Origin: Candidatus Aenigmatarchaeota archaeon
GTDB lineage: Archaea; Aenigmatarchaeota; Aenigmatarchaeia; CG10238-14; SpSt-28
Reading direction: 5' to 3'
Length of the DNA stretch: 60,095 nucleotides
Assembly (NCBI GenBank): GCA_049976365.1
Contig: JBMFIJ010000001.1
Location: forward strand, 1-60,095
The translations under genes were made by a program, and so were the position numbers. The notes under the pieces are model-generated. The model saw only the letters and a program-made list of their open reading frames with translations, had not been told where the DNA came from and searched no databases. Shown piece by piece: positions 3,524 to 34,553 of this stretch (position 1 is the first letter of the stretch; every line of letters begins with the position of its first letter).

Positions 3524-4156
3524 TTATTTTTTCAAATTCTTTTTTGAATATTTTAATATCAGTTTTTTGAATATTAGATAAGTTGCAATTGCTAAAAATA
3601 CTAAAATGCCAAAGAAAGATGACAAATCCCCTATTCCAAAATGTTTCCAATTTTCTCCGAAATAATATCCTACAGAAATCAAAAACGTCGACCATATTAT
3701 GGAGCCAGAAAATGTATAAATTATGTATTTTTCTAGTTTCATTTTTGTGAAACCGGCTGGAATAGAAATTAACTCTCTTATGCCAGGAACCATTCTTCCA
3801 AAGAAAACTGCTATGTTACCATAATTTTTAAACCAATTATCAGCAGCTCTAATTTTTTTCCTATCAATGAAAAAATATTTTCCATAATTTTCAATTAATC
3901 TTCTTCCAATTTTTAAGGCAAGATAATAGTAAACTAAAGAAGCAAGGGTTGAACCAAAAGCAGCTATTATTATACCTATAGCCAATCCAATAAAATTAAG
4001 ATTGTAGAATGAAATTAGATAACCTGATAAGGGTAAAATAATTTCACTAGGTATAGGAGGAAATATAGCCTCCAGAAATACTCCTATGAAAATTCCTAGA
4101 AACAAATTTTTCTGAATTGCCGTAATGATAAAATTTAGTAAGCTTTCTAGCATCAA
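3524..4156 (-). CDS. DedA/SNARE-associated family membrane protein
   Basis: 210 aa multi-TM protein with a DedA-like core (RMVPGIRELISIPAGFTKM, GYYFG). Confidence 0.65.
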   Translation of the reverse strand: MMLESLLNFIITAIQKNLFLGIFIGVFLEAIFPPIPSEIILPLSGYLISFYNLNFIGLAIGIIIAAFGSTLASLVYYYLALKIGRRLIENYGKYFFIDRKKIRAADNWFKNYGNIAVFFGRMVPGIRELISIPAGFTKMKLEKYIIYTFSGSIIWSTFLISVGYYFGENWKHFGIGDLSSFFGILVFLAIATYLIFKKLILKYSKKNLKK

Positions 4157-4192
4157 TTAATTGGTTAGATTAAAATAAAAGTTTCTAGATAA

Positions 4193-4214
4193 AGACTACC
4201 ATAGGATCTTTGGG
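4193..4214. repeat. 3' half of the 22-bp rRNA processing stem (pairs with 7868-7889)
   Basis: agactaccataggatctttggg is the exact reverse complement of cccaaagatcctatggtagtct at 7868-7889. Confidence 0.85.
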
Positions 4215-4547
4215 TTTGTTAGATTTCCGGCCACCCTTGGGCTGTTGGGAGTGGCAGGCTCGCAGCTCGCCCGAAGGCTCGCTGCATACACCTCCACCCC
4301 ATCAACGCCATCGTCTATGGCAGCCCTCGTCTCTCTACCGGGTTTCCCCAGTAGAGAGATTGGCCGTCTATTTTTCCGGGTGGTTTCCCCCTTAGATGCT
4401 TTCAGGGGTTATCCACTGGGGCGTGGCTGCCCGGCATGCCAAATGGACAACCGGTAAACCAGAGGCCCCGGAAGCGCGTTCCTTTCGTACTTGCGCTTCC
4501 TTCCGGTCAGACGGCTAGCACTCCCGGTAGATAGCGACCGAACTGTC

Positions 4548-4671
4548 TCTATCGCCGCATACAAGAGAATACTATCTATTAGATGTTTTCGACCCAGCAA
4601 CGATAGCTATTTCATCCTTTTGGCAAGATATAAATGCCAAAATGTCTATAGCAAGTGACCCTTGTATGCGG
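4548..4671 (-). other. About 124-nt insertion in 23S at the I-CreI/L2593 site (intron-like, no ORF)
   Basis: The canonical GUCGUGA|GACAGUUCGG is split. The insert ends pair perfectly: CCGCAUACAAG with CUUGUAUGCGG (11 bp). Confidence 0.8.
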
Positions 4672-4800
4672 TCACGACGTTCTGAACCCAGCTAGCGTCC
4701 CCCTTTAACCAGTGGACACCTGTACCCTTGGCCACTGCTGCATGGCCAGGAGGGGGGGAGCCGACAGCTACGCACCAACGCGCCGGGTCAATTTGCCTGT

Positions 4801-4900
4801 CACTATCTGCAGGAAACGAGACCCACGCAGATAGCTTTACTGTGGGCTTTCACCGGCCACGGGCCCATTCTGGAGGATAGGCAAAAATCAAAAGCCTATC
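4801..4900 (-). other. 57-100-nt insertion in 23S at the GGGGAUA|ACAG peptidyl-transferase site (I-SceI/L2449 position); boundary ambiguous
   Basis: GGGGAUA (4901-4907) is separated from ACAGGC (4795-4800) by 100 nt. A second ACAG at 4840-4843 gives an alternative 57-nt insert (4844-4900). The insert contains the hairpin GAUAGGC-UUUUGAUUUUU-GCCUAUC. Confidence 0.6.
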
Positions 4901-5044
4901 TATCCCCGAGGTAGCTTTTCTGATACCACCGGCCCCCATTAAGGGGTACCGATGTATCGCTAACCCACGCTTTCGCGGCTGGAACCCTCGCTTTGTGGGT
5001 TCCAGTCAGCCCACCTTTTGCGTTTGCACTCTACCCCGGATTTC

Positions 5045-5132
5045 TTTCGGGTGAAGATTCTCTTACTATCAAAAGCTACCCCGCTAATCATTTGGTCATT
5101 CGGGAGCGACCTTATCATCTAGAGAATCTTCA
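5045..5132 (-). other. About 88-nt insertion inside the conserved GGGUCA-GAAAUCC hairpin loop of 23S domain V
   Basis: A perfect 12-bp closing stem, UGAAGAUUCUCU/AGAGAAUCUUCA (5121-5132 with 5052-5063), interrupts CCCGGGUCA...GAAAUCCGGGG. Confidence 0.7.
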
Positions 5133-5360
5133 TGACCCGGGTGAGGTGAGCTTTGGGCCCCCTCGATATCTTTTCGAGGGGGTGCCGCCCCAGCCGAACT
5201 GCCCATCTAGCGCTGTCCCCTCTTCGGGTAAGCTGTAAAGTCCCAGAAGGCTGGTGTTACACTTGCCCCTCGGCTTCGGCCGAAGCCTACGCCTGATAGC
5301 GGGTCCCAGCTACTCTATGCAACCAGGACTTTACAGCAACGCCAGACTGCAGTAAAGCTC

Positions 5361-5398
5361 TCCGCTAGAAGGAATTAATGATTAATTCCTTCTATCTA
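5361..5398 (-). other. About 35-nt hairpin insertion in 23S after GACCCCGU (near E. coli 2068)
   Basis: The near-perfect palindrome AGAAGGAAUUAAUCAUUAAUUCCUUCU (5367-5393) sits between GACCCCGU and GAGCUUUACUGCAG, which are contiguous in canonical LSU rRNA. Confidence 0.65.
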
Positions 5399-5540
5399 CG
5401 GGGTCTACGTTTCCCACCGGGAGTCTCCGGCCTATTCACCGGAAAGCCGAGTTCGCTGGGTCCCTCCCCGGGACAGCGCCCAGGTCGTTAAGCTGTTCAA
5501 CCGGCCGCCATTTAAGCGGCAAGGGATTACGCTACTTCTG

Positions 5541-5618
5541 TCGCCCAAGGCGGCGTCTAGGCTTTCATAGCTATTTCTGTAAGTCAGAAGCTCTAGCTCA
5601 AATGACCGCCTGAGATAC
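5541..5618 (-). other. About 78-nt insertion in 23S at the I-CeuI/L1923 site (intron-like, no ORF)
   Basis: The canonical GUAACUCUGACCGUC|CUAAGGUAGCG reads GUAACUCUGACCGUC-[insert]-CAGAAGUAGCGUAAUCCCUUG. The insert ends (CAGGCGGUC ... GACGCCGCCUUG) can pair. Confidence 0.7.
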
Positions 5619-5746
5619 GACGGTCAGAGTTACCGCCGCCGCTCTGCGGGGCTTAGCCCGGTTGTAACCGGGTTTCACACACCGCAGCTGGGCAAACCTC
5701 AGGGACTGTACTCATCCTTTCGGACTAGCAGTCCCCTGCGTTTTTT

Positions 5747-5847
5747 AACCTGGGAAGAAAGGATATGATAGACTTTTTGGTAAGTTTGTAAATTGAACAT
5801 TTTTCCCAAACTATACCATTTAATACTTAAAATTTCCTCTCTTCCCG
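5747..5847 (-). other. About 100-nt AT-rich insertion in 23S after GACUGUUUAACAAAC (near E. coli 1785)
   Basis: Closing stem GGGAAGAGAGGA/UCCUUUCUUCCC (5835-5846 with 5752-5763). The canonical sequence continues AAAAACGCAGG immediately after the insert. Confidence 0.7.
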
Positions 5848-7243
5848 TTTGTTAAACAGTCGCCTGGGCCTTGTCACTGCGACCTGCAGTCCCTTCTATC
5901 CCTTGCCTTCTAAAGAAGGCTTAGGATAGTCAGGACTACAGGCACCCCTTCTAGCGAACATACGGGGCCAACTTGCCGATTTCCCTGGGGAGGGTTCTCC
6001 CAACACGCCGTTCCCTTCTCAGGAAGCCCACCTGTGCCGGTTCTCGGTACGGTCTAGGGGAATCCTTGTGGATTGCCTTTTCACGGGCTCCAAGAATCGG
6101 CCGAACTCCCTTACGGGAGCCCATCCTGCCTTCAGCTCCTTCTCCTCATTACGAGACTCCGGAGCCTTCGGCAGTTAGCTTGCGTCGGCCTATCTCGAAG
6201 CGTCGGCAATCCACCTTGCCTCGCGGCACGTATCCCCTAGGTTCCGGAATATTAACCGGATTCCCTTTCTCGGGTTCGCCGATTAAGGGAACCCTTAGGA
6301 CCGACTAACTGCCGGCTGACGAACATTGCCGGCAAACCCTTGGGCTTCAGGCGGCTGGGATTCTCACCCAGCTCGGCTGCTACTTTCGGCGGGATCTGCA
6401 TTACTGTGTGGTCCATGGGAGTTCACACCCCCACTTCTACCCACACAGTACGCCCCCCTACCATCTCTTATCGAGATCTGGGGTATCGGCAGTCGGCTTA
6501 GTCCCTTCCATCTTCAGGGCACAAACCCTCGGCGGGTAAGTTGTTGTACACTTCTTAGCTGATGGCTACTTTTAGGCCCACAGCCCCGCTGTCTAAGGGT
6601 TTGTACCCCTTCTTCGTTTAGCCGACATTTAGGGGCCTTAACCCCAGTCTGGGTTGTTCCCCTCACGAGTGCCGAGCTTACCCCAGCACTCATTTTCCCA
6701 CCTTCTACGAGGCTGGCGGATTCGGAGTTTGACAGAGTGGCTGAGCCTTTCGGCCCTTGACCACTCGATCAGTAACTCTACCCCACCAGCACTCTCAGGT
6801 GAGACTGCTCTGCGGAGCATATCGGGGGGAACCGGCTATGAGGCCGCTCGATTGGCTTTTCACCCCTAATCCTGGCTCACGAGAGGGATTGGCATCTCAC
6901 CACCTCTATCGGGCCTCCACCTCCCTTTCGGGAGGCTTCACCCTGGCCAGGATTAGATCGCGGCCCTTCCGGTTGTAGGCGAGTGACTTCAGGCGCTTTC
7001 ACACCCCGCGCCTCACTTGGTTTTAACCAAGTTGCGCGCGAGTCGCTTTCGCTACGGCTTCGGGGTTTAACCCCTTAACCTCGCCACTCACCTACACTCC
7101 CCGCCCCGTTTTTCCAAACGGACGTCAGGACGGTGTTAGTCGTCTCTCGCTTTTTAGCTTCAAGACGACATCTTTCCCGCCCTGACAGACTATAACCGCT
7201 TGGTTTCAGGCTCTTTTCACCCCGCTTTCGCGGTGCTTTTCAG

Positions 7244-7344
7244 CTTTCCAGGCGGTTAGCCGAGTAAAAGGATTAAGTTTAAATAAAAAATTCCAGCTTT
7301 TCCTGATTGAATCATTTTATTACATATATGCCTTCGACTAACCG
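7244..7344 (-). other. About 101-nt AT-rich insertion in 23S domain I (between GGAAAG and CUGAAAAGCACC)
   Basis: The canonical GUACCGUGAGGGAAAGCUGAAAAGCACC is split. The insert is bounded by the direct repeat GGAAAG and closed by GCGGUUAGUCGA/UCGGCUAACCGC. Confidence 0.7.
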
Positions 7345-7867
7345 CTTTCCGTCACCGTACTAGTACGCTATCGGACTCTGGGTGTGTTTAGGGTTGGATG
7401 TTAATGCCACCCAGCTTCCCACTCCCAAATCAGGGAATGGTACTCAGGAGACCTGGAATTTCCCTTCTCCCCTTCCCCTACGGGACTATCACCCTCTATG
7501 GTAGGGCATTCCAGCCCACTTCGGGTCGAGGAGTTAGGGAATACCCAGGTCCTACAACTCCACATTCCAGTTAGCTTTTCGCCAACCGGTTCGGTTTGCC
7601 CTTTGCCGGTTTCGGTCGCCCCTACTCCCGGCATCTCATTTGATTTCTCTTCCTGCGGGTACTGAGATGCTTCACTTCCCCGCGTCCCCCTTCCAGGTCT
7701 TTAAGACCTGGAATGCCTCTAAACGAGGCAGGATTCCCATTCGGAAATCCCGGGGTCTAAGGCCGCGTGCGCCTAACCCGGGCCTATCGTGGCTTGCCAC
7801 GTCCTTCTTCGGCCCCAGAGCCGAGCCATCCACCAAGCGGCGTAGCAGTGGCCGGAAACCCCTTAAC

Positions 7868-7889
7868 CCCAAAGATCCTATGGTAGTCT
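7868..7889. repeat. 5' half of the 22-bp rRNA processing stem (pairs with 4193-4214)
   Basis: Exact inverted repeat. An inner 11-bp helix, UUUCCGGCCAC/GUGGCCGGAAA, follows after a bulged region. Confidence 0.85.
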
Positions 7890-8115
7890 CATTTTTTATG
7901 CCTCTTAAAGACAGTTCGTTCTTCATTACTTCAGTAAACTTTTTAAATCATTGGCGTCGACCTTCACCTTTTAGCTTTTTGCTAAAAGGTTGCATTAATG
8001 CTAGCAAGGTGTCCTCTCTCATCATTAAATTTTCAGAAAGATTGGCAGCTAGCTCATCGCAACTTTAAAGGCTTAAGCTGCCATAATTGTCACTAAAATT
8101 TTTATGTATTTACAT

Positions 8116-15126: not shown

Positions 15127-15378
15127 GGTGTGCCTGCCATAACCCACCTTCTGTTCAGGGCAGCATTCGTCTAAGCGCCTTAAAGGCTTGCATCTCATCG
15201 ATTGTGTAGGTCCGTTTCACCCTTTTGTAAGCAACTCATATTTTAATCATCGTTATCGCTTACAAAAGGTCTCGTTTCTGATACCTACACAGGGCTTCTC
15301 AGCCCTTTTAATCTCGATGGGTGGAATTTCCTCACCCTTGCTTTTGGGCAAGGGCGAAGCTGCCCAGCAGGCTCACCC
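15126..15378 (-). ncRNA. rnpB: RNase P RNA (compact, about 253 nt, type A-like)
   Basis: The reverse strand reads:
- P1: GGGUGAGCCUGC, pairing with GCAGGCACACCC at the 3' end.
- P2: GGGCAGC/GCUGCCC.
- CR-I: GAGGAAAUUCCACC.
- CR-II/III: AGGGUGAAACGGAC.
- CR-V: ACAGAAGGUGGGUUAUGG.
The region is a GC-rich island. Confidence 0.85.
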
Positions 15379-32984: not shown

Positions 32985-34553
32985 TTGGAAAAAATAAAAG
33001 GGAGACATACAGAGTTGGTTTCAGTCTATATTCCTGCTGGCTACAATTTGTATGAAATGATAAATCAGCTTATTCAGGAAAAGTCTACAGCAGAAAACAT
33101 AAAAAGCAAATCTACAAGAAAAAATGTAATTTCTGCTCTAGAAAAAATTATTCAATACTTAAGGTTATTCAAGCAAACTCCTCCAAACGGTTTAGCAGTT
33201 TTTGCTGGGAATGTTTCTGAATTCGAAGGAAAAGAAGATATAAGACTTTGGGCTATAGAGCCGCCAGAGAAACTCGAAACTAAAATTTATTGGTGCGATC
33301 AAGTTTTTGTTTTAGATCCGCTAAAAGAAATGGTAAAGGAAAAAGATGTTTATGGATTAATAGTTTTAGATGCTAGAGAGGCTACTATTGGACTTTTAAA
33401 AGGTAAGAAAATAATTGTTAAAAAAAGATTGGATTCTACAGTTCCAAGCAAAACAGTTAAAGGAGGAATGTGTTTACATAGATCAACCCTAATAACTTTA
33501 TCTAATGGCCAAAAAATACCAATAAATAAAATAAAGAAAGGAGATGAAGTTTTGTGTTTTGATTTTACTGAAAATAAAATAAAGACAGGAATAGTGAAGG
33601 AAATTTATAAGAGAAAGGTTGAAAAAGCTAAAAAAATATTTTATGAGAGAAACAGTTTGATAGTCAGTGAAGATCATTTACTGTTTGTTAAAGAAAATGA
33701 GATTAAAGAAAAGCCAGTTAGAGAAATCAAAAGACAAGAAGTGGTTTTTGTTTTGGATAATGAAGTAAAAGAAGTGCAAATTAAAAATTTGAGTGAGGTT
33801 TCTGTAGAAGCTTCTATATTCTTCTATGATTTAGAAGTCTATCCTTTTGGAAACTATTTCGCAAATGATTTGCTTGTGCATAATTCGCAAGGTAGATATG
33901 ATAGGCTTAGAGAAGATGCAATAAATGAATTTTTAACCAAAGTTGGAGAAGTAGCATCTAATATATTTCTAGAAGAAAACGTCCTAGGTGTTTTAATAGG
34001 AGGTCCAGGCCCAGTTAAAGAAAGACTAGCTAAGGAAGATTATCTTAACTATCAGATTAAAAAGAAAATACTCGGAATAAAAGATATAGGTTATGCAGAT
34101 GAATATGGGCTTGAAGAACTAGTAAAAAGGTCAGAGGATTTGTTACAACAAGCAGAGATATTTAGAGAGAAAAATTTGCTTAACAAATTTTTTGTAACTC
34201 TACGAGATAAAGGAAATGCAGTTGTAGGGTTAGATAATGTAATTAAGGCTTTAGAAATGGGGGCAGTAGAAGAAATTATTATTGTTGAAAACTTTGATTA
34301 TGTTAGAAAGTACTTGATTTGTGAAAATGGTCATACGAAAACTGTTATATCTAAAAGAGATGAAAAAATATTTTGTGATGTTTGCGGGAAAGAAATGAAA
34401 GTTGAAAAGGAAGAGGAAATTTACGATGAAATAATTGATAAAGCAGAAAGTATAGGAATAAAAGTGAATATAGTTTCTGATGAGACAGAAGAAGGTAAGG
34501 GACTTAAAAGTATGGGCGGGATAGGAGCATTTTTGCGTTTCAAGATAGATTAG
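32985..34553 (+). CDS. prf1: Peptide chain release factor aRF1, interrupted by a mini-intein; the true start is probably upstream of 32985
   Basis: NIKS motif (TAENIKSKSTRKNV), YxCxxxF (YWCDQVF), the GG..SQGRYDRLRED middle domain and a C-terminal zinc-ribbon mini-domain. 522 aa versus about 385 after intein removal. Confidence 0.9.
   Translation: MEKIKGRHTELVSVYIPAGYNLYEMINQLIQEKSTAENIKSKSTRKNVISALEKIIQYLRLFKQTPPNGLAVFAGNVSEFEGKEDIRLWAIEPPEKLETKIYWCDQVFVLDPLKEMVKEKDVYGLIVLDAREATIGLLKGKKIIVKKRLDSTVPSKTVKGGMCLHRSTLITLSNGQKIPINKIKKGDEVLCFDFTENKIKTGIVKEIYKRKVEKAKKIFYERNSLIVSEDHLLFVKENEIKEKPVREIKRQEVVFVLDNEVKEVQIKNLSEVSVEASIFFYDLEVYPFGNYFANDLLVHNSQGRYDRLREDAINEFLTKVGEVASNIFLEENVLGVLIGGPGPVKERLAKEDYLNYQIKKKILGIKDIGYADEYGLEELVKRSEDLLQQAEIFREKNLLNKFFVTLRDKGNAVVGLDNVIKALEMGAVEEIIIVENFDYVRKYLICENGHTKTVISKRDEKIFCDVCGKEMKVEKEEEIYDEIIDKAESIGIKVNIVSDETEEGKGLKSMGGIGAFLRFKID
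33471..33884 (+). mobile_element. Mini-intein (138 aa, no endonuclease domain) inserted at the GGQ loop of aRF1
   Basis: Block A CLHRSTLITLSNG, block B SEDHLLF, block F FFYDLEVYPFGNYFAN, block G DLLVHN followed by +1 Ser. The flanking exteins align contiguously to aRF1. Confidence 0.85.

Follow-up and report, generated by a model that had tools for sequence, protein, structure and literature searches.

Introns of archaeal rRNA with a motif of the bulge-helix-bulge (BHB) type have been known since 1985, and described examples include the 23S intron of Desulfurococcus mobilis with I-DmoI, introns in the 23S and 16S rRNAs of Staphylothermus, Pyrobaculum and Aeropyrum, and those in the 16S rRNA of Thermoproteales. 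The intervening sequences of bacterial 23S rRNA stand in place of the tips of helices 25 and 45 and show no BHB register; RNase III takes them out after transcription, and the rRNA is not religated. In metagenomic large-subunit (LSU) rRNA genes of DPANN and other archaea, BHB introns have been found beside group I introns (Nawrocki, Jones & Eddy 2018; PMC6125680), and two further papers report short or partial introns lacking an open reading frame (ORF) in the 16S rRNA of Thermoproteales (PMC4496867; PMC3608112). An intron can also have a second role, in that Euryarchaeota have a pre-tRNA-Trp intron that doubles as a box C/D guide RNA (Clouet d'Orval et al. 2001, as summarized in a review, PMC7994747). 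Here we describe the 23S rRNA gene on a 60,095-nt stretch of DNA from Candidatus Aenigmatarchaeota archaeon (GCA_049976365.1, contig JBMFIJ010000001.1, positions 1 to 60,095; hereafter the window). This gene contains eight short inserts that, with a probability we put at roughly 0.85 from comparison of sequences, are ORF-less archaeal BHB introns of a relaxed form that would be spliced out of the precursor. In the literature we searched, we found no description of multiple BHB mini-introns in the 23S rRNA of Aenigmatarchaeota.

The gene occupies 4225..7857 of the window on the minus strand, as do all of the features within it that are described below, and is matched end to end by the Rfam archaeal LSU model (RF02540, model positions 1-2987, 2399.7 bits); with its introns it measures 3633 nt, compared with 2987 nt for the model. 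An earlier reading of the window, made from the letters alone (the sequence-only reading), had recognized this gene and had proposed that seven AT-rich, stem-closed insertions, of about 0.5 kb in total, split it. Alignment to the covariance model places large insertions where that reading had put them, namely at model 497/498 (102 nt), 1903/1904 (106 nt), 2029/2030 (80 nt), 2400 (92 nt) and 2692 (125 nt) as well as near 2160 (about 38 nt) and near 2555 (113 versus 32 nt). Relatives were gathered by an exact-pattern scan with the helix-69 variant of this lineage, taking one genome per species, which returned 106 loci that are overwhelmingly metagenome-assembled genomes (MAGs) of "Candidatus Aenigmatarchaeota", with some Nanohaloarchaea. 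We then set the borders of the inserts by a MAFFT alignment of 42 related 23S genes and that of Escherichia coli, read against insert-free relatives.

This comparison yields eight inserts rather than seven, each of 32-124 nt, summing to 613 nt rather than about 0.5 kb, and their removal in silico leaves 3020 nt. The inserts follow E. coli positions 471, 1784, 1927, 2070, 2306, 2449, 2477 and 2597 (insert sites are given throughout as E. coli 23S positions, the insert following the position named). Six of the seven intervals proposed earlier were right to within 1-4 nt: 7244-7344, 5747-5847 and 5541-5618 correspond to the inserts that we call I1, I2 and I3, respectively, and 5361-5398, 5045-5132 and 4548-4671 correspond to I4, I5 and I7. 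The remaining interval, 4801-4900, was mis-delimited, and alignment with relatives resolves it into two separate inserts, I6a and I6b, split by 28 nt of true exon. In this lineage the 2449 region reads GGGGAU-AAUGGGCCC (GGGGAUAAUGGG; GAUAAUGGG), rather than the ...AACAGGC of most organisms; because the lineage does not have the canonical sequence, the reading of one insert splitting GAUA/ACAGGC had mistaken a downstream ACAGGC for the return of canonical sequence.

Most of the inserts are indeed AT-rich, with a G+C content of 0.30-0.42, but I3 (0.51) and I6b (0.49) are not; the corresponding values are 0.58 for the rRNA exons and 0.317 for the window as a whole. The closing stems formed by inverted repeats are present, at 6-13 bp, and no insert contains an endonuclease ORF, which none could encode because the longest is 124 nt. 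Three inserts had been placed exactly at sites used by known introns or homing endonucleases. Those after 1927 and 2449 lie at classic intron sites, but the third follows 2597, 4 nt from the I-CreI site at 2593. Neither the remainder of the window nor other rRNA sites of relatives gave a further copy of any insert, and the inserts are therefore not a dispersed repeat family.

The window itself provides an internal positive control for the motif. The pre-23S processing stem is a canonical hBHBh' element (outer helix h, bulge, central helix H, bulge, inner helix h'), with GUUA/AG^G on one strand and UAAC/AA^A on the other (slashes separate the elements and the caret marks the cut), 4/4 Watson-Crick pairs in H and a perfect 23-bp h. 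Its 5' strand spans 7848..7890 of the minus strand (h 7890..7868, H (GUUA) 7867..7864, bulge AG^G 7863..7861, h' 7860..7848) and its 3' strand spans 4192..4234 (h' 4234..4222, H' (UAAC) 4221..4218, bulge AA^A 4217..4215, h 4214..4192). The presence of this BHB element indicates that the pre-rRNA of the organism is an endonuclease substrate, and it fixes the geometry to be tested at the inserts: on each strand, read 5' to 3', four helix nucleotides come first, the cut falls between the second and the third of three bulge nucleotides, and another helix follows. All eight inserts match this register. At every one of them the four exon nucleotides that precede the last two exon nucleotides pair with the four intron nucleotides that precede the last two of the intron, and from its second nucleotide on the intron pairs with the nucleotides just upstream of the 3' tetranucleotide to form the stem h'. 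The central helix has 4/4 pairs in I2, I3, I4, I5, I6a and I7 and 3/4 in I1 and I6b. The inner stem comprises 6-13 contiguous base pairs in seven of the introns; in I6b it consists of 2 bp, an internal loop and then 8 bp. Minimum-free-energy folds calculated with 12-nt flanks reproduce the BHB motif for I4 and I1.

Taking the inserts in the direction of transcription, I1 (7346..7246, 101 nt) follows position 471 and reads ACGG/AA^A/GCGGUUAG... on the 5' side and ...CUAACCGC/CUGG/AA^A on the 3' side, with H at 3/4 pairs and an h' of 12 bp. In the loop of helix 65, after 1784, I2 (5848..5744, 105 nt) reads UAAC/AA^A/C-GGGAAGAGAGGA... and UCCUUUCUUCCC-A-G/GUUA/AA^A, its stem pairing GGGAAG... with ...CUUCCC and H being 4/4. 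Just 3' of helix 69, after 1927, lies I3 (5615..5538, 78 nt), with GUCG/UA^U and CGAC/AG^A (H 4/4). The short I4 (5395..5360, 36 nt), after 2070, has CCGU/AG^A/UAGAAGG... and ...CCUUCUA/GCGG/AG^A, with H 4/4 and an h' of 13 bp. At the hairpin tip after 2306 is I5 (5133..5046, 88 nt), which reads CGGG/UC^A/UGAAGAUUCUCU... and ...AGAGAAUCUUCA/CCCG/AA^A (H 4/4) and whose interior, considered below, is like that of a box C/D small RNA (sRNA). The shortest insert, I6a (4901..4870, 32 nt), follows 2449 beside A2451, with GGGG/AU^A/GAUAGGC... and GCCUAUC/CUCC/AG^A (H 4/4). After 2477, at the tip of helix 89, is I6b (4841..4793, 49 nt), a probable intron that reads GCCC/AC^A/GU-(AAAG)-CUAUCUGC... and GCAGAUAG-(UG)-AC/AGGC/AA^A, with H at 3/4 and an interrupted h'. 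Finally, I7 (4672..4549, 124 nt) is in the loop of helix 93 after 2597 and reads GUCG/UG^A/CCGCAUACAAG... and CUUGUAUGCGG/CGAU/AG^A, with H 4/4 and an h' of 13 bp. By eye, repeats at the borders of I1 (GGAAAGC) and I2 (UUAAC/UUAAA) might be read as target-site duplications of a transposon; we rejected this reading, as these direct repeats arise from the shared NN^A bulges and the palindromic central helix.

A blind scan of the gene for BHB motifs is unspecific, returning 111 hits compared with about 86 in shuffled sequences. Because such a scan does not discriminate, we tested the motif at borders that had been defined independently by comparison, and it is the coincidence of the two that supports the assignment. 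As a strict criterion, we required that, at the position defined by the alignment and with the exact length of the insert, the central helix have 4/4 pairs and the inner helix no fewer than 5 contiguous ones. Across 44 related 23S genes, in which inserts of at least 25 nt were counted, 75 of 152 inserts pass this test; when segments of matching length were placed at random, 13 of 1520 did so. When the sequences were reversed, such that hairpins were kept and the handedness of the bulges was inverted, none of the 152 passed.

The pairing is also maintained by compensatory change. At site 2306, exon strands GUGG, GAGG, CUGG, CGGG and AGGG are tracked by intron strands CCGC, CCUC, CCAG, CCCG and CCCU, respectively. 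At site 1927 (I3), the exon strand GUCG occurs with CGAC, CGGC or CGGU and the exon strand GUCU occurs with AGAU, GGAU or AGAC. The distinct homologues of I7, 12 in number and 61-396 nt long, all have H at 4/4. In an alignment of ungapped junctions from 22 sequences at site 2306, 93.8 % of cells are paired and 14 of 16 pairs show two-sided changes; the covariation score is 0.870, compared with 0.267 in shuffles, of which 0 of 500 reach the observed value, and only 33-43 % of cells pair when the partners are slid by 1-3 columns. A corresponding alignment of 11 sequences at site 2597 has 96.6 % of cells paired, two-sided changes in 12 of 16 pairs and a score of 0.869, compared with 0.328 in shuffles. 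In both alignments all 12 of the h' pairs covary. In relatives that carry I6b the central helix likewise covaries (GCCC with GGGU or GGGC, GUCC with GGAC or GGAU), and none of the 13 passes the strict test.

Comparison with close relatives identifies intron-less alleles of the kind that the sequence-only reading had suggested looking for. I1, I2, I4 and I6a are missing from four relatives whose 23S genes are 86-91 % identical to that in the window, these being two metagenome contigs at about 91 % (L109, L110), an Aenigmatarchaeota MAG at 87 % (L046) and a contig labelled as an Infirmifilum sp. (Thermoproteota) MAG at 86 % (L074, JBEULP010000040.1). The exon-exon junctions predicted for these introns, compared over 36 nt, are the uninterrupted sequence of these four relatives, with 0 substitutions for I2 and I6a and 0-2 for I1 and I4. 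The junctions predicted for I3, I5, I6b and I7 are the sequence of more distant intron-less relatives. The identity of 86 %, together with the presence of I3, I5, I6b and I7, indicates that the Infirmifilum contig is probably misbinned.

The eight introns fall into two groups by distribution. I1, I2, I4 and I6a are confined to the species of the window, which is also represented by four contigs from other samples that are 99.7 % identical (L108, L111, L112, L113), and I1 is present in three of these (L108, L111, L112). I3, I5, I6b and I7 also occur in relatives whose rRNA identity is as low as about 73 %; I3 is found as an intron of 44-50 nt in many of them and I5 is found in 23 distinct relatives. 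We infer that the first group are recent species-specific acquisitions or survivors and that the second group are old and vertically inherited. Within the species, substitutions in introns occur at about tenfold the rate in exons, with 3 changes in the 101 nt of I1 compared with about 0.3 % overall.

Longer introns of relatives point to an origin for the first group. At the same and neighbouring sites, relatives contain introns that measure 540-870 nt and end in the same BHB elements, and ORFs within long introns at sites 500, 1782, 2449, 2542 and 2583 match the Pfam family LAGLIDADG_3 with E values of 1e-7 to 1e-18. One of two long inserts at site 2306 matches the same family at 1e-6, and ORFs at sites 2054 and 2070, including that of L065, give sub-threshold matches (E about 0.006). 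LAGLIDADG-type introns of relatives occupy the positions of I2, I4 and I6a, the match at the I4 site (2070) being only sub-threshold. A 564-nt LAGLIDADG intron at the I2 site in L021 has ends (ACAGAAAGAGGAG...CUCCUCUUUCUGGUUAAA) similar to those of I2 (ACGGGAAGAGAGG...CCUUUCUUCCCAGGUUAAA). The I4 site is filled by introns of 335-838 nt in L030, L032 and L065, and the ends of I4 resemble those of the 335-nt intron of L032 and of an 828-nt intron of L030. At the I6a site relatives have BHB introns of 54-592 nt, with LAGLIDADG proteins encoded in L069 and L102. The resemblance of the ends of the short introns to those of long mobile ones suggests that the short introns are internally deleted derivatives that keep only the endonuclease substrate; under this proposal I1, I2, I4 and I6a would descend from LAGLIDADG mobile introns like those at the same sites in relatives.

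Intron mobility appears to be ongoing in the species. One of the contigs from other samples (L111; GCA_049972275.1, JBMFKN010000012.1), which is 99.7 % identical to the window over 9 kb, has one extra intron that is missing from the window. This intron (L111:8990-9266) is inserted after window 4708, between 4708 and 4707 (E. coli ~2562), and starts GUAGGGAAAUC; it opens with an ORF, MEEEIVLKLSAMLVTDGC..., that is ended by the end of the contig and has a weak match to LAGLIDADG_3 (E = 0.036). In the wider clade, related Aenigmatarchaeota 23S genes (L065, JAVHRC010000112.1; L030, L009, L032, L008 and L046) measure 4.3-6.9 kb and have up to about 10 inserts each, that of L065 being the longest at 6.9 kb. 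Over the 44 genes, inserts occur at about 45 alignment positions and roughly half of them pass the strict test. Owing to BHB introns at about 30 or more sites, 23S genes in Aenigmatarchaeota range from about 3.0 to 6.9 kb.

By analogy with the established archaeal pathway, excision would proceed as follows. The last six nucleotides of each 5' exon would act as a 4-nt strand followed by two nucleotides, the strand pairing with four nucleotides near the 3' end of the intron, and the intron ends would form a stem of 6-13 bp stacked on this exon-intron helix, exposing two 3-nt bulges (NN^A). On either strand the bulge is positioned 3' of that strand's part of the central helix. Cleavage of both bulges by the tRNA-splicing endonuclease EndA would produce 2',3'-cyclic phosphate and 5'-OH ends, after which ligation by RtcB would connect the exons and close the intron into a circle, giving an uninterrupted rRNA of about 3020 nt.

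Several observations weigh against this interpretation or qualify it. None of the introns has an outer exon-exon helix h of more than 3 bp (range 0-3 bp), and the strict form of the motif is found only at the processing stem. With h absent, the motif is the relaxed HBh' form, which requires an endonuclease of broad specificity; this form is known from non-canonical tRNA introns, whose cleavage is limited to endonucleases with broadened specificity (PMC5829648). In I1 and I6b only three of four central pairs form, the inner stem of I6b opens with just 2 bp, and the blind scan, as noted above, does not single out the insert borders. The inserts, their borders, the geometry and covariation of the motif, the identity of the predicted junctions with intron-less alleles, the LAGLIDADG relatives and the polymorphism are read from the sequences, from which excision, exon ligation, the formation of circular introns and the enzymes responsible are inferred. 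No EndA or RtcB gene was found in a search of the 60-kb window. A look-up for spliced transcripts by way of an ORF antisense to and internal to an exon found nothing on record. We regard seven of the introns as firm and I6b as probably an intron.

The sequence-only reading had given equal weight to BHB introns and to expansion segments retained in the mature rRNA. The evidence strongly supports the former, and we consider retention improbable. The tips of hairpins are where I5 and I6b are located, I3, I5, I6b and I7 are conserved over a wide clade as lineage-specific expansions are, and the gene does bear one true expansion, all of which would suit retention. This expansion, which was not among the intervals proposed earlier, adds about 33 nt to the tip of helix 63 (about 5931-5893), has normal G+C content, lies inside a hairpin loop of the model and is common to relatives, in 0 of 9 of which it shows a BHB motif; it is an ordinary expansion segment and not an intron, and it serves as a negative control. 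However, an expansion segment provides no reason for a 4-bp exon-insert helix and two 3-nt bulges to be kept by compensatory change, or for the mirror-image geometry to fail in all 152 cases. Nor would it be expected that four of the inserts are missing in relatives 86-91 % identical. Universal sequence is broken after U2449 beside A2451, in the loop of helix 93 and between helix 69 and A1928; altogether six of the eight inserts break conserved sequence away from hairpin tips and four are polymorphic, and only the helix-63 extension has the features of an expansion segment. Most of the inserts interrupt universally conserved strands close to helix 69 or the peptidyl-transferase centre, and it is implausible that a working ribosome would retain them there. 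Taken singly, I6b may be a retained expansion of helix 89.

Slightly less probable still is that the inserts are cut at the bulges and the exons are not rejoined, giving a naturally fragmented 23S rRNA comparable to those of bacteria with intervening sequences or to the permuted 23S rRNA of Thermococcales. Cleavage being common to both explanations, the BHB evidence serves this one equally, and in published work some archaeal 23S rRNAs stay circular or permuted after BHB processing. Eight breaks would, however, give nine fragments, with several of the cuts within the peptidyl-transferase ring. To our knowledge, every archaeal rRNA BHB intron that has been studied experimentally is ligated (see PMC3608112 for background), and RtcB ligates the same types of end in tRNA splicing, both of which favour splicing of the inserts as introns. 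Degenerate self-splicing group I introns can be set aside, for although known group I hotspots include or adjoin 1927 and 2449, and less so ~2597, and such introns have been described from LSU genes of DPANN archaea, one of them on an Aenigmarchaeota contig at LSU/1923 (PMC6125680), inserts of 32-124 nt are far too short for the catalytic core (P3-P9, typically at least 200 nt), no Intron_gpI, snoRNA or other relevant Rfam match at E <= 10 was found in window 4100-8000, and the ends fit the protein-dependent BHB motif. We likewise dismiss an assembly artefact or a decaying pseudogene, for although contigs of the species tend to break in the 23S gene and second-shell nucleotides of the peptidyl-transferase centre are substituted, four independent assemblies from different samples (L108, L111, L112 and the window) have the same inserts, the core catalytic nucleotides are intact, the odd substitutions are common to most of the clade, and the gene has an intact processing stem and matches the model over its whole length at 2399.7 bits.

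The interior of I5 raises the possibility that this intron has a further function. A box C/D-like core spans 5069..5118 of the minus strand with the layout C-12 nt-D'-4 nt-C'-12 nt-D: box C (AUGAUAA) is at 5118..5112, the first spacer at 5111..5100, box D' (AUGA) at 5099..5096, box C' (AUGAUUA) at 5091..5085, the second spacer at 5084..5073 and box D (UUGA) at 5072..5069. At C6 and D1 these boxes differ from the RUGAUGA/CUGA consensus, the consensus pair G:C being replaced by A:U. A strict fit to the C-12-D'-loop-C'-12-D layout is found in 13 of 23 introns at site 2306, compared with 2 of 4600 shuffled sequences, and the other introns at the site differ by having a 13-nt spacer or a hairpin between D' and C'. 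When both strands of the window were scanned with a relaxed C/D pattern, I5 was the sole match; shuffled sequences give 0.17 matches per window. The interiors of the old introns are conserved, and nucleotides 16-66 of I5 are 86-92 % identical in relatives whose closing stems have wholly diverged. The pair C6:D1, in consensus boxes the G:C pair of the non-canonical stem of the kink-turn, covaries, being U:A in 8 introns, A:U in 4 and A:A in 1, and the pair C'6:D'1 is U:A in 10 and A:U in 2. As judged by eye, the bulge between the terminal stem of I5 and the GA pairs is of 4-5 nt rather than 3. The minimum-free-energy fold of I5 pairs the two spacers with each other, which would be an alternative to a guide role; compared between clades position by position, the spacers gave no clean covariation.

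Both spacers have candidate targets in 23S rRNA. In each of the 11 parsed relatives, the sequence within 23S rRNA to which the D spacer is most complementary is AAGCUACCUCGG (E. coli 2434-2445), which places the N+5 nucleotide at U2438. In the window the predicted target, AAGCUACCUC, is at 4908..4917 (minus strand; E. coli 2434-2443), with U2438 at window 4913, and the predicted guide duplex ends exactly where the central helix of the intron at site 2449 (I6a) begins. For the D' spacer, 11 of 11 show pairing with the P-loop, GCUGGGGCGG(U/C)A, in an unchanging register, the N+5 nucleotide being G2251, and guide and target show one covariation, U:A versus C:G. In the clade of the window there is a U.C mismatch at D' position 3, two positions from the target nucleotide, and the P-loop register pairs 8/12; searched against the window's own 23S rRNA, the D' guide gave no convincing top hit. 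Some relatives have BHB introns of 58-86 nt within the P-loop itself (GGCUGGG/.../GCGG), at 2252 in L068, L055 and L038, whose 23S genes are about 76 % identical to that in the window, and at 2255 in L009 and L065. Such introns interrupt the predicted target, and so the D' spacer can pair there only after splicing.

Matches of 12 nt of the quality seen for the spacers are expected by chance at roughly 0.1 per 3-kb rRNA, and no gene for L7Ae, Nop5 or fibrillarin is present within the 60-kb window. For these reasons we keep a guide function for I5 as a hypothesis at about even odds, with the balance tipping slightly against it: I5 may be a functional box C/D guide RNA residing in an rRNA intron, conserved across Aenigmatarchaeota and guiding the methylation of its host 23S rRNA. 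In such a case I5, either within the pre-23S rRNA or as a released circle, would assemble with L7Ae, Nop5 and fibrillarin and would direct 2'-O-methylation at two nucleotides: G2251, which lies upstream at a distance of about 55 nt, and U2438, which directly adjoins the 2449 intron site and lies about 130 nt downstream. If true, the guide role would explain the long retention of I5 while other introns turn over; it would tie intron retention to modification and provide a prokaryotic counterpart of eukaryotic intron-encoded snoRNAs, inside the very rRNA that is modified. No description of a C/D RNA in an rRNA intron was found in the literature searched. A 2021 review of archaeal C/D RNAs gives tRNA introns, tRNA-adjacent positions and free-standing genes as their contexts and does not list rRNA introns (PMC7994747), and a 2013 review leaves open whether rRNA introns give rise to non-coding RNAs (PMC3608112).

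Two other introns contain elements of possibly related structure, as noted by eye. In relatives (L046, L074, L068 and L066, the last with a 23S gene 73 % identical to that in the window), I3 forms a 45-nt hairpin with CUGA-UUU-AAUGAU, like a box D'/C' K-loop, and in the I3 of the window a 33-nt hairpin is inserted at that place. In I7, conserved AGAC and GGAUGAA strands (GA/GAUGA) lie beside a covarying helix (GCUAU/AUAGC, CCAAC/GUUGG, CCCAA/UUGGG). These elements of I3 and I7 are possible further kink-turns of the L7Ae type.

In the 23S rRNA of the window, substitutions affect several second-shell nucleotides of the peptidyl-transferase centre that are otherwise near-universal: C2452U, A2453G, C2499G, C2501A, A2503C and A2059U. 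The substituted nucleotides are at window 4764-4773, 4866-4869 and about 5406 (E. coli 2497-2506, 2450-2453 and 2059, respectively). Most are common to the majority of 43 aligned DPANN 23S genes, A2503 being C in 26 and U in 11, and in the same genes the catalytic core (A2451, U2506, U2585, A2602, G2251-2253 and G2553) is invariant.

Elsewhere in the window, a scan for RNA genes found no 16S or 5S rRNA gene near the 23S gene; it found an archaeal RNase P RNA (15128-15376, minus strand) and one tRNA-Ser. The RNase P RNA (137.8 bits) is reduced, at 249 nt compared with 288 model positions, with several helices shortened. The neighbouring genes are archaeal housekeeping genes that encode SMC, uL16, deoxyhypusine synthase, S8e and aIF2-beta, together with Cbf5, aRF1, GatD/E, MCM, TBP, uL2, uL3, uL4, PCNA and the thermosome. 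The aRF1 gene (32985-34553, plus strand; 522 aa) contains a Hint/intein-splicing domain (residues ~155-300) placed between eRF1 domains 1 and 2. This insertion is a mini-intein without an endonuclease domain, a parallel at the protein level to the ORF-less introns of the rRNA.

The introns have practical consequences. The four other assemblies of the species all end inside the 23S gene, at window 5151 (L108), about 4430 (L111), 5218 (L112) and 7502 (L113), which suggests that intron polymorphism or differences in coverage fragment assemblies of the species there. Introns of this kind break assemblies and defeat rRNA-based binning and primers, and the 23S gene of one relative is filed under a crenarchaeal genus; they also inflate the apparent "expansion segments" in comparisons of DPANN ribosomes. 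The clade constitutes a natural series of intron decay, from LAGLIDADG mobile introns, one of them polymorphic at 99.7 % identity, down to cores of 32-36 nt. As these cores keep just what the endonuclease requires, they define a minimal relaxed substrate for the EndA of DPANN archaea.

The BHB class of intron is already known, and what is notable here is the number of introns, their minimal size (32 and 36 nt), the uniformly relaxed motif and the picture across the clade. Like other archaeal rRNA BHB introns, those of the window are located in the conserved core, have a BHB motif formed between exon and intron, encode LAGLIDADG proteins in their long versions and are sporadically present or absent between close relatives. 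Unlike them, they are found in a DPANN host rather than a crenarchaeote; there are eight in one gene, all ORF-less and two of only 32 and 36 nt; the outer helix is missing; and four are ancient and clade-wide. They share phyla, gene and hotspot region (LSU 1917-1951 and others) with the elements of PMC6125680; in contrast to the group I ribozymes described there, they are not ribozymes and are much shorter. In being short, AT-rich and closed by stems, they are like the intervening sequences of bacterial 23S rRNA (Salmonella, Leptospira, Campylobacter) and the rRNA insertions of the candidate phyla radiation (CPR). Like the tRNA-Trp intron, I5 is a BHB intron with a C/D-like interior and candidate guides that match its own host transcript, but its host is rRNA rather than tRNA, its boxes are variants (AUGAUAA/UUGA) and its guide function is a prediction only; a confirmed box C/D nature would take I5 beyond the kinds of intron known so far.

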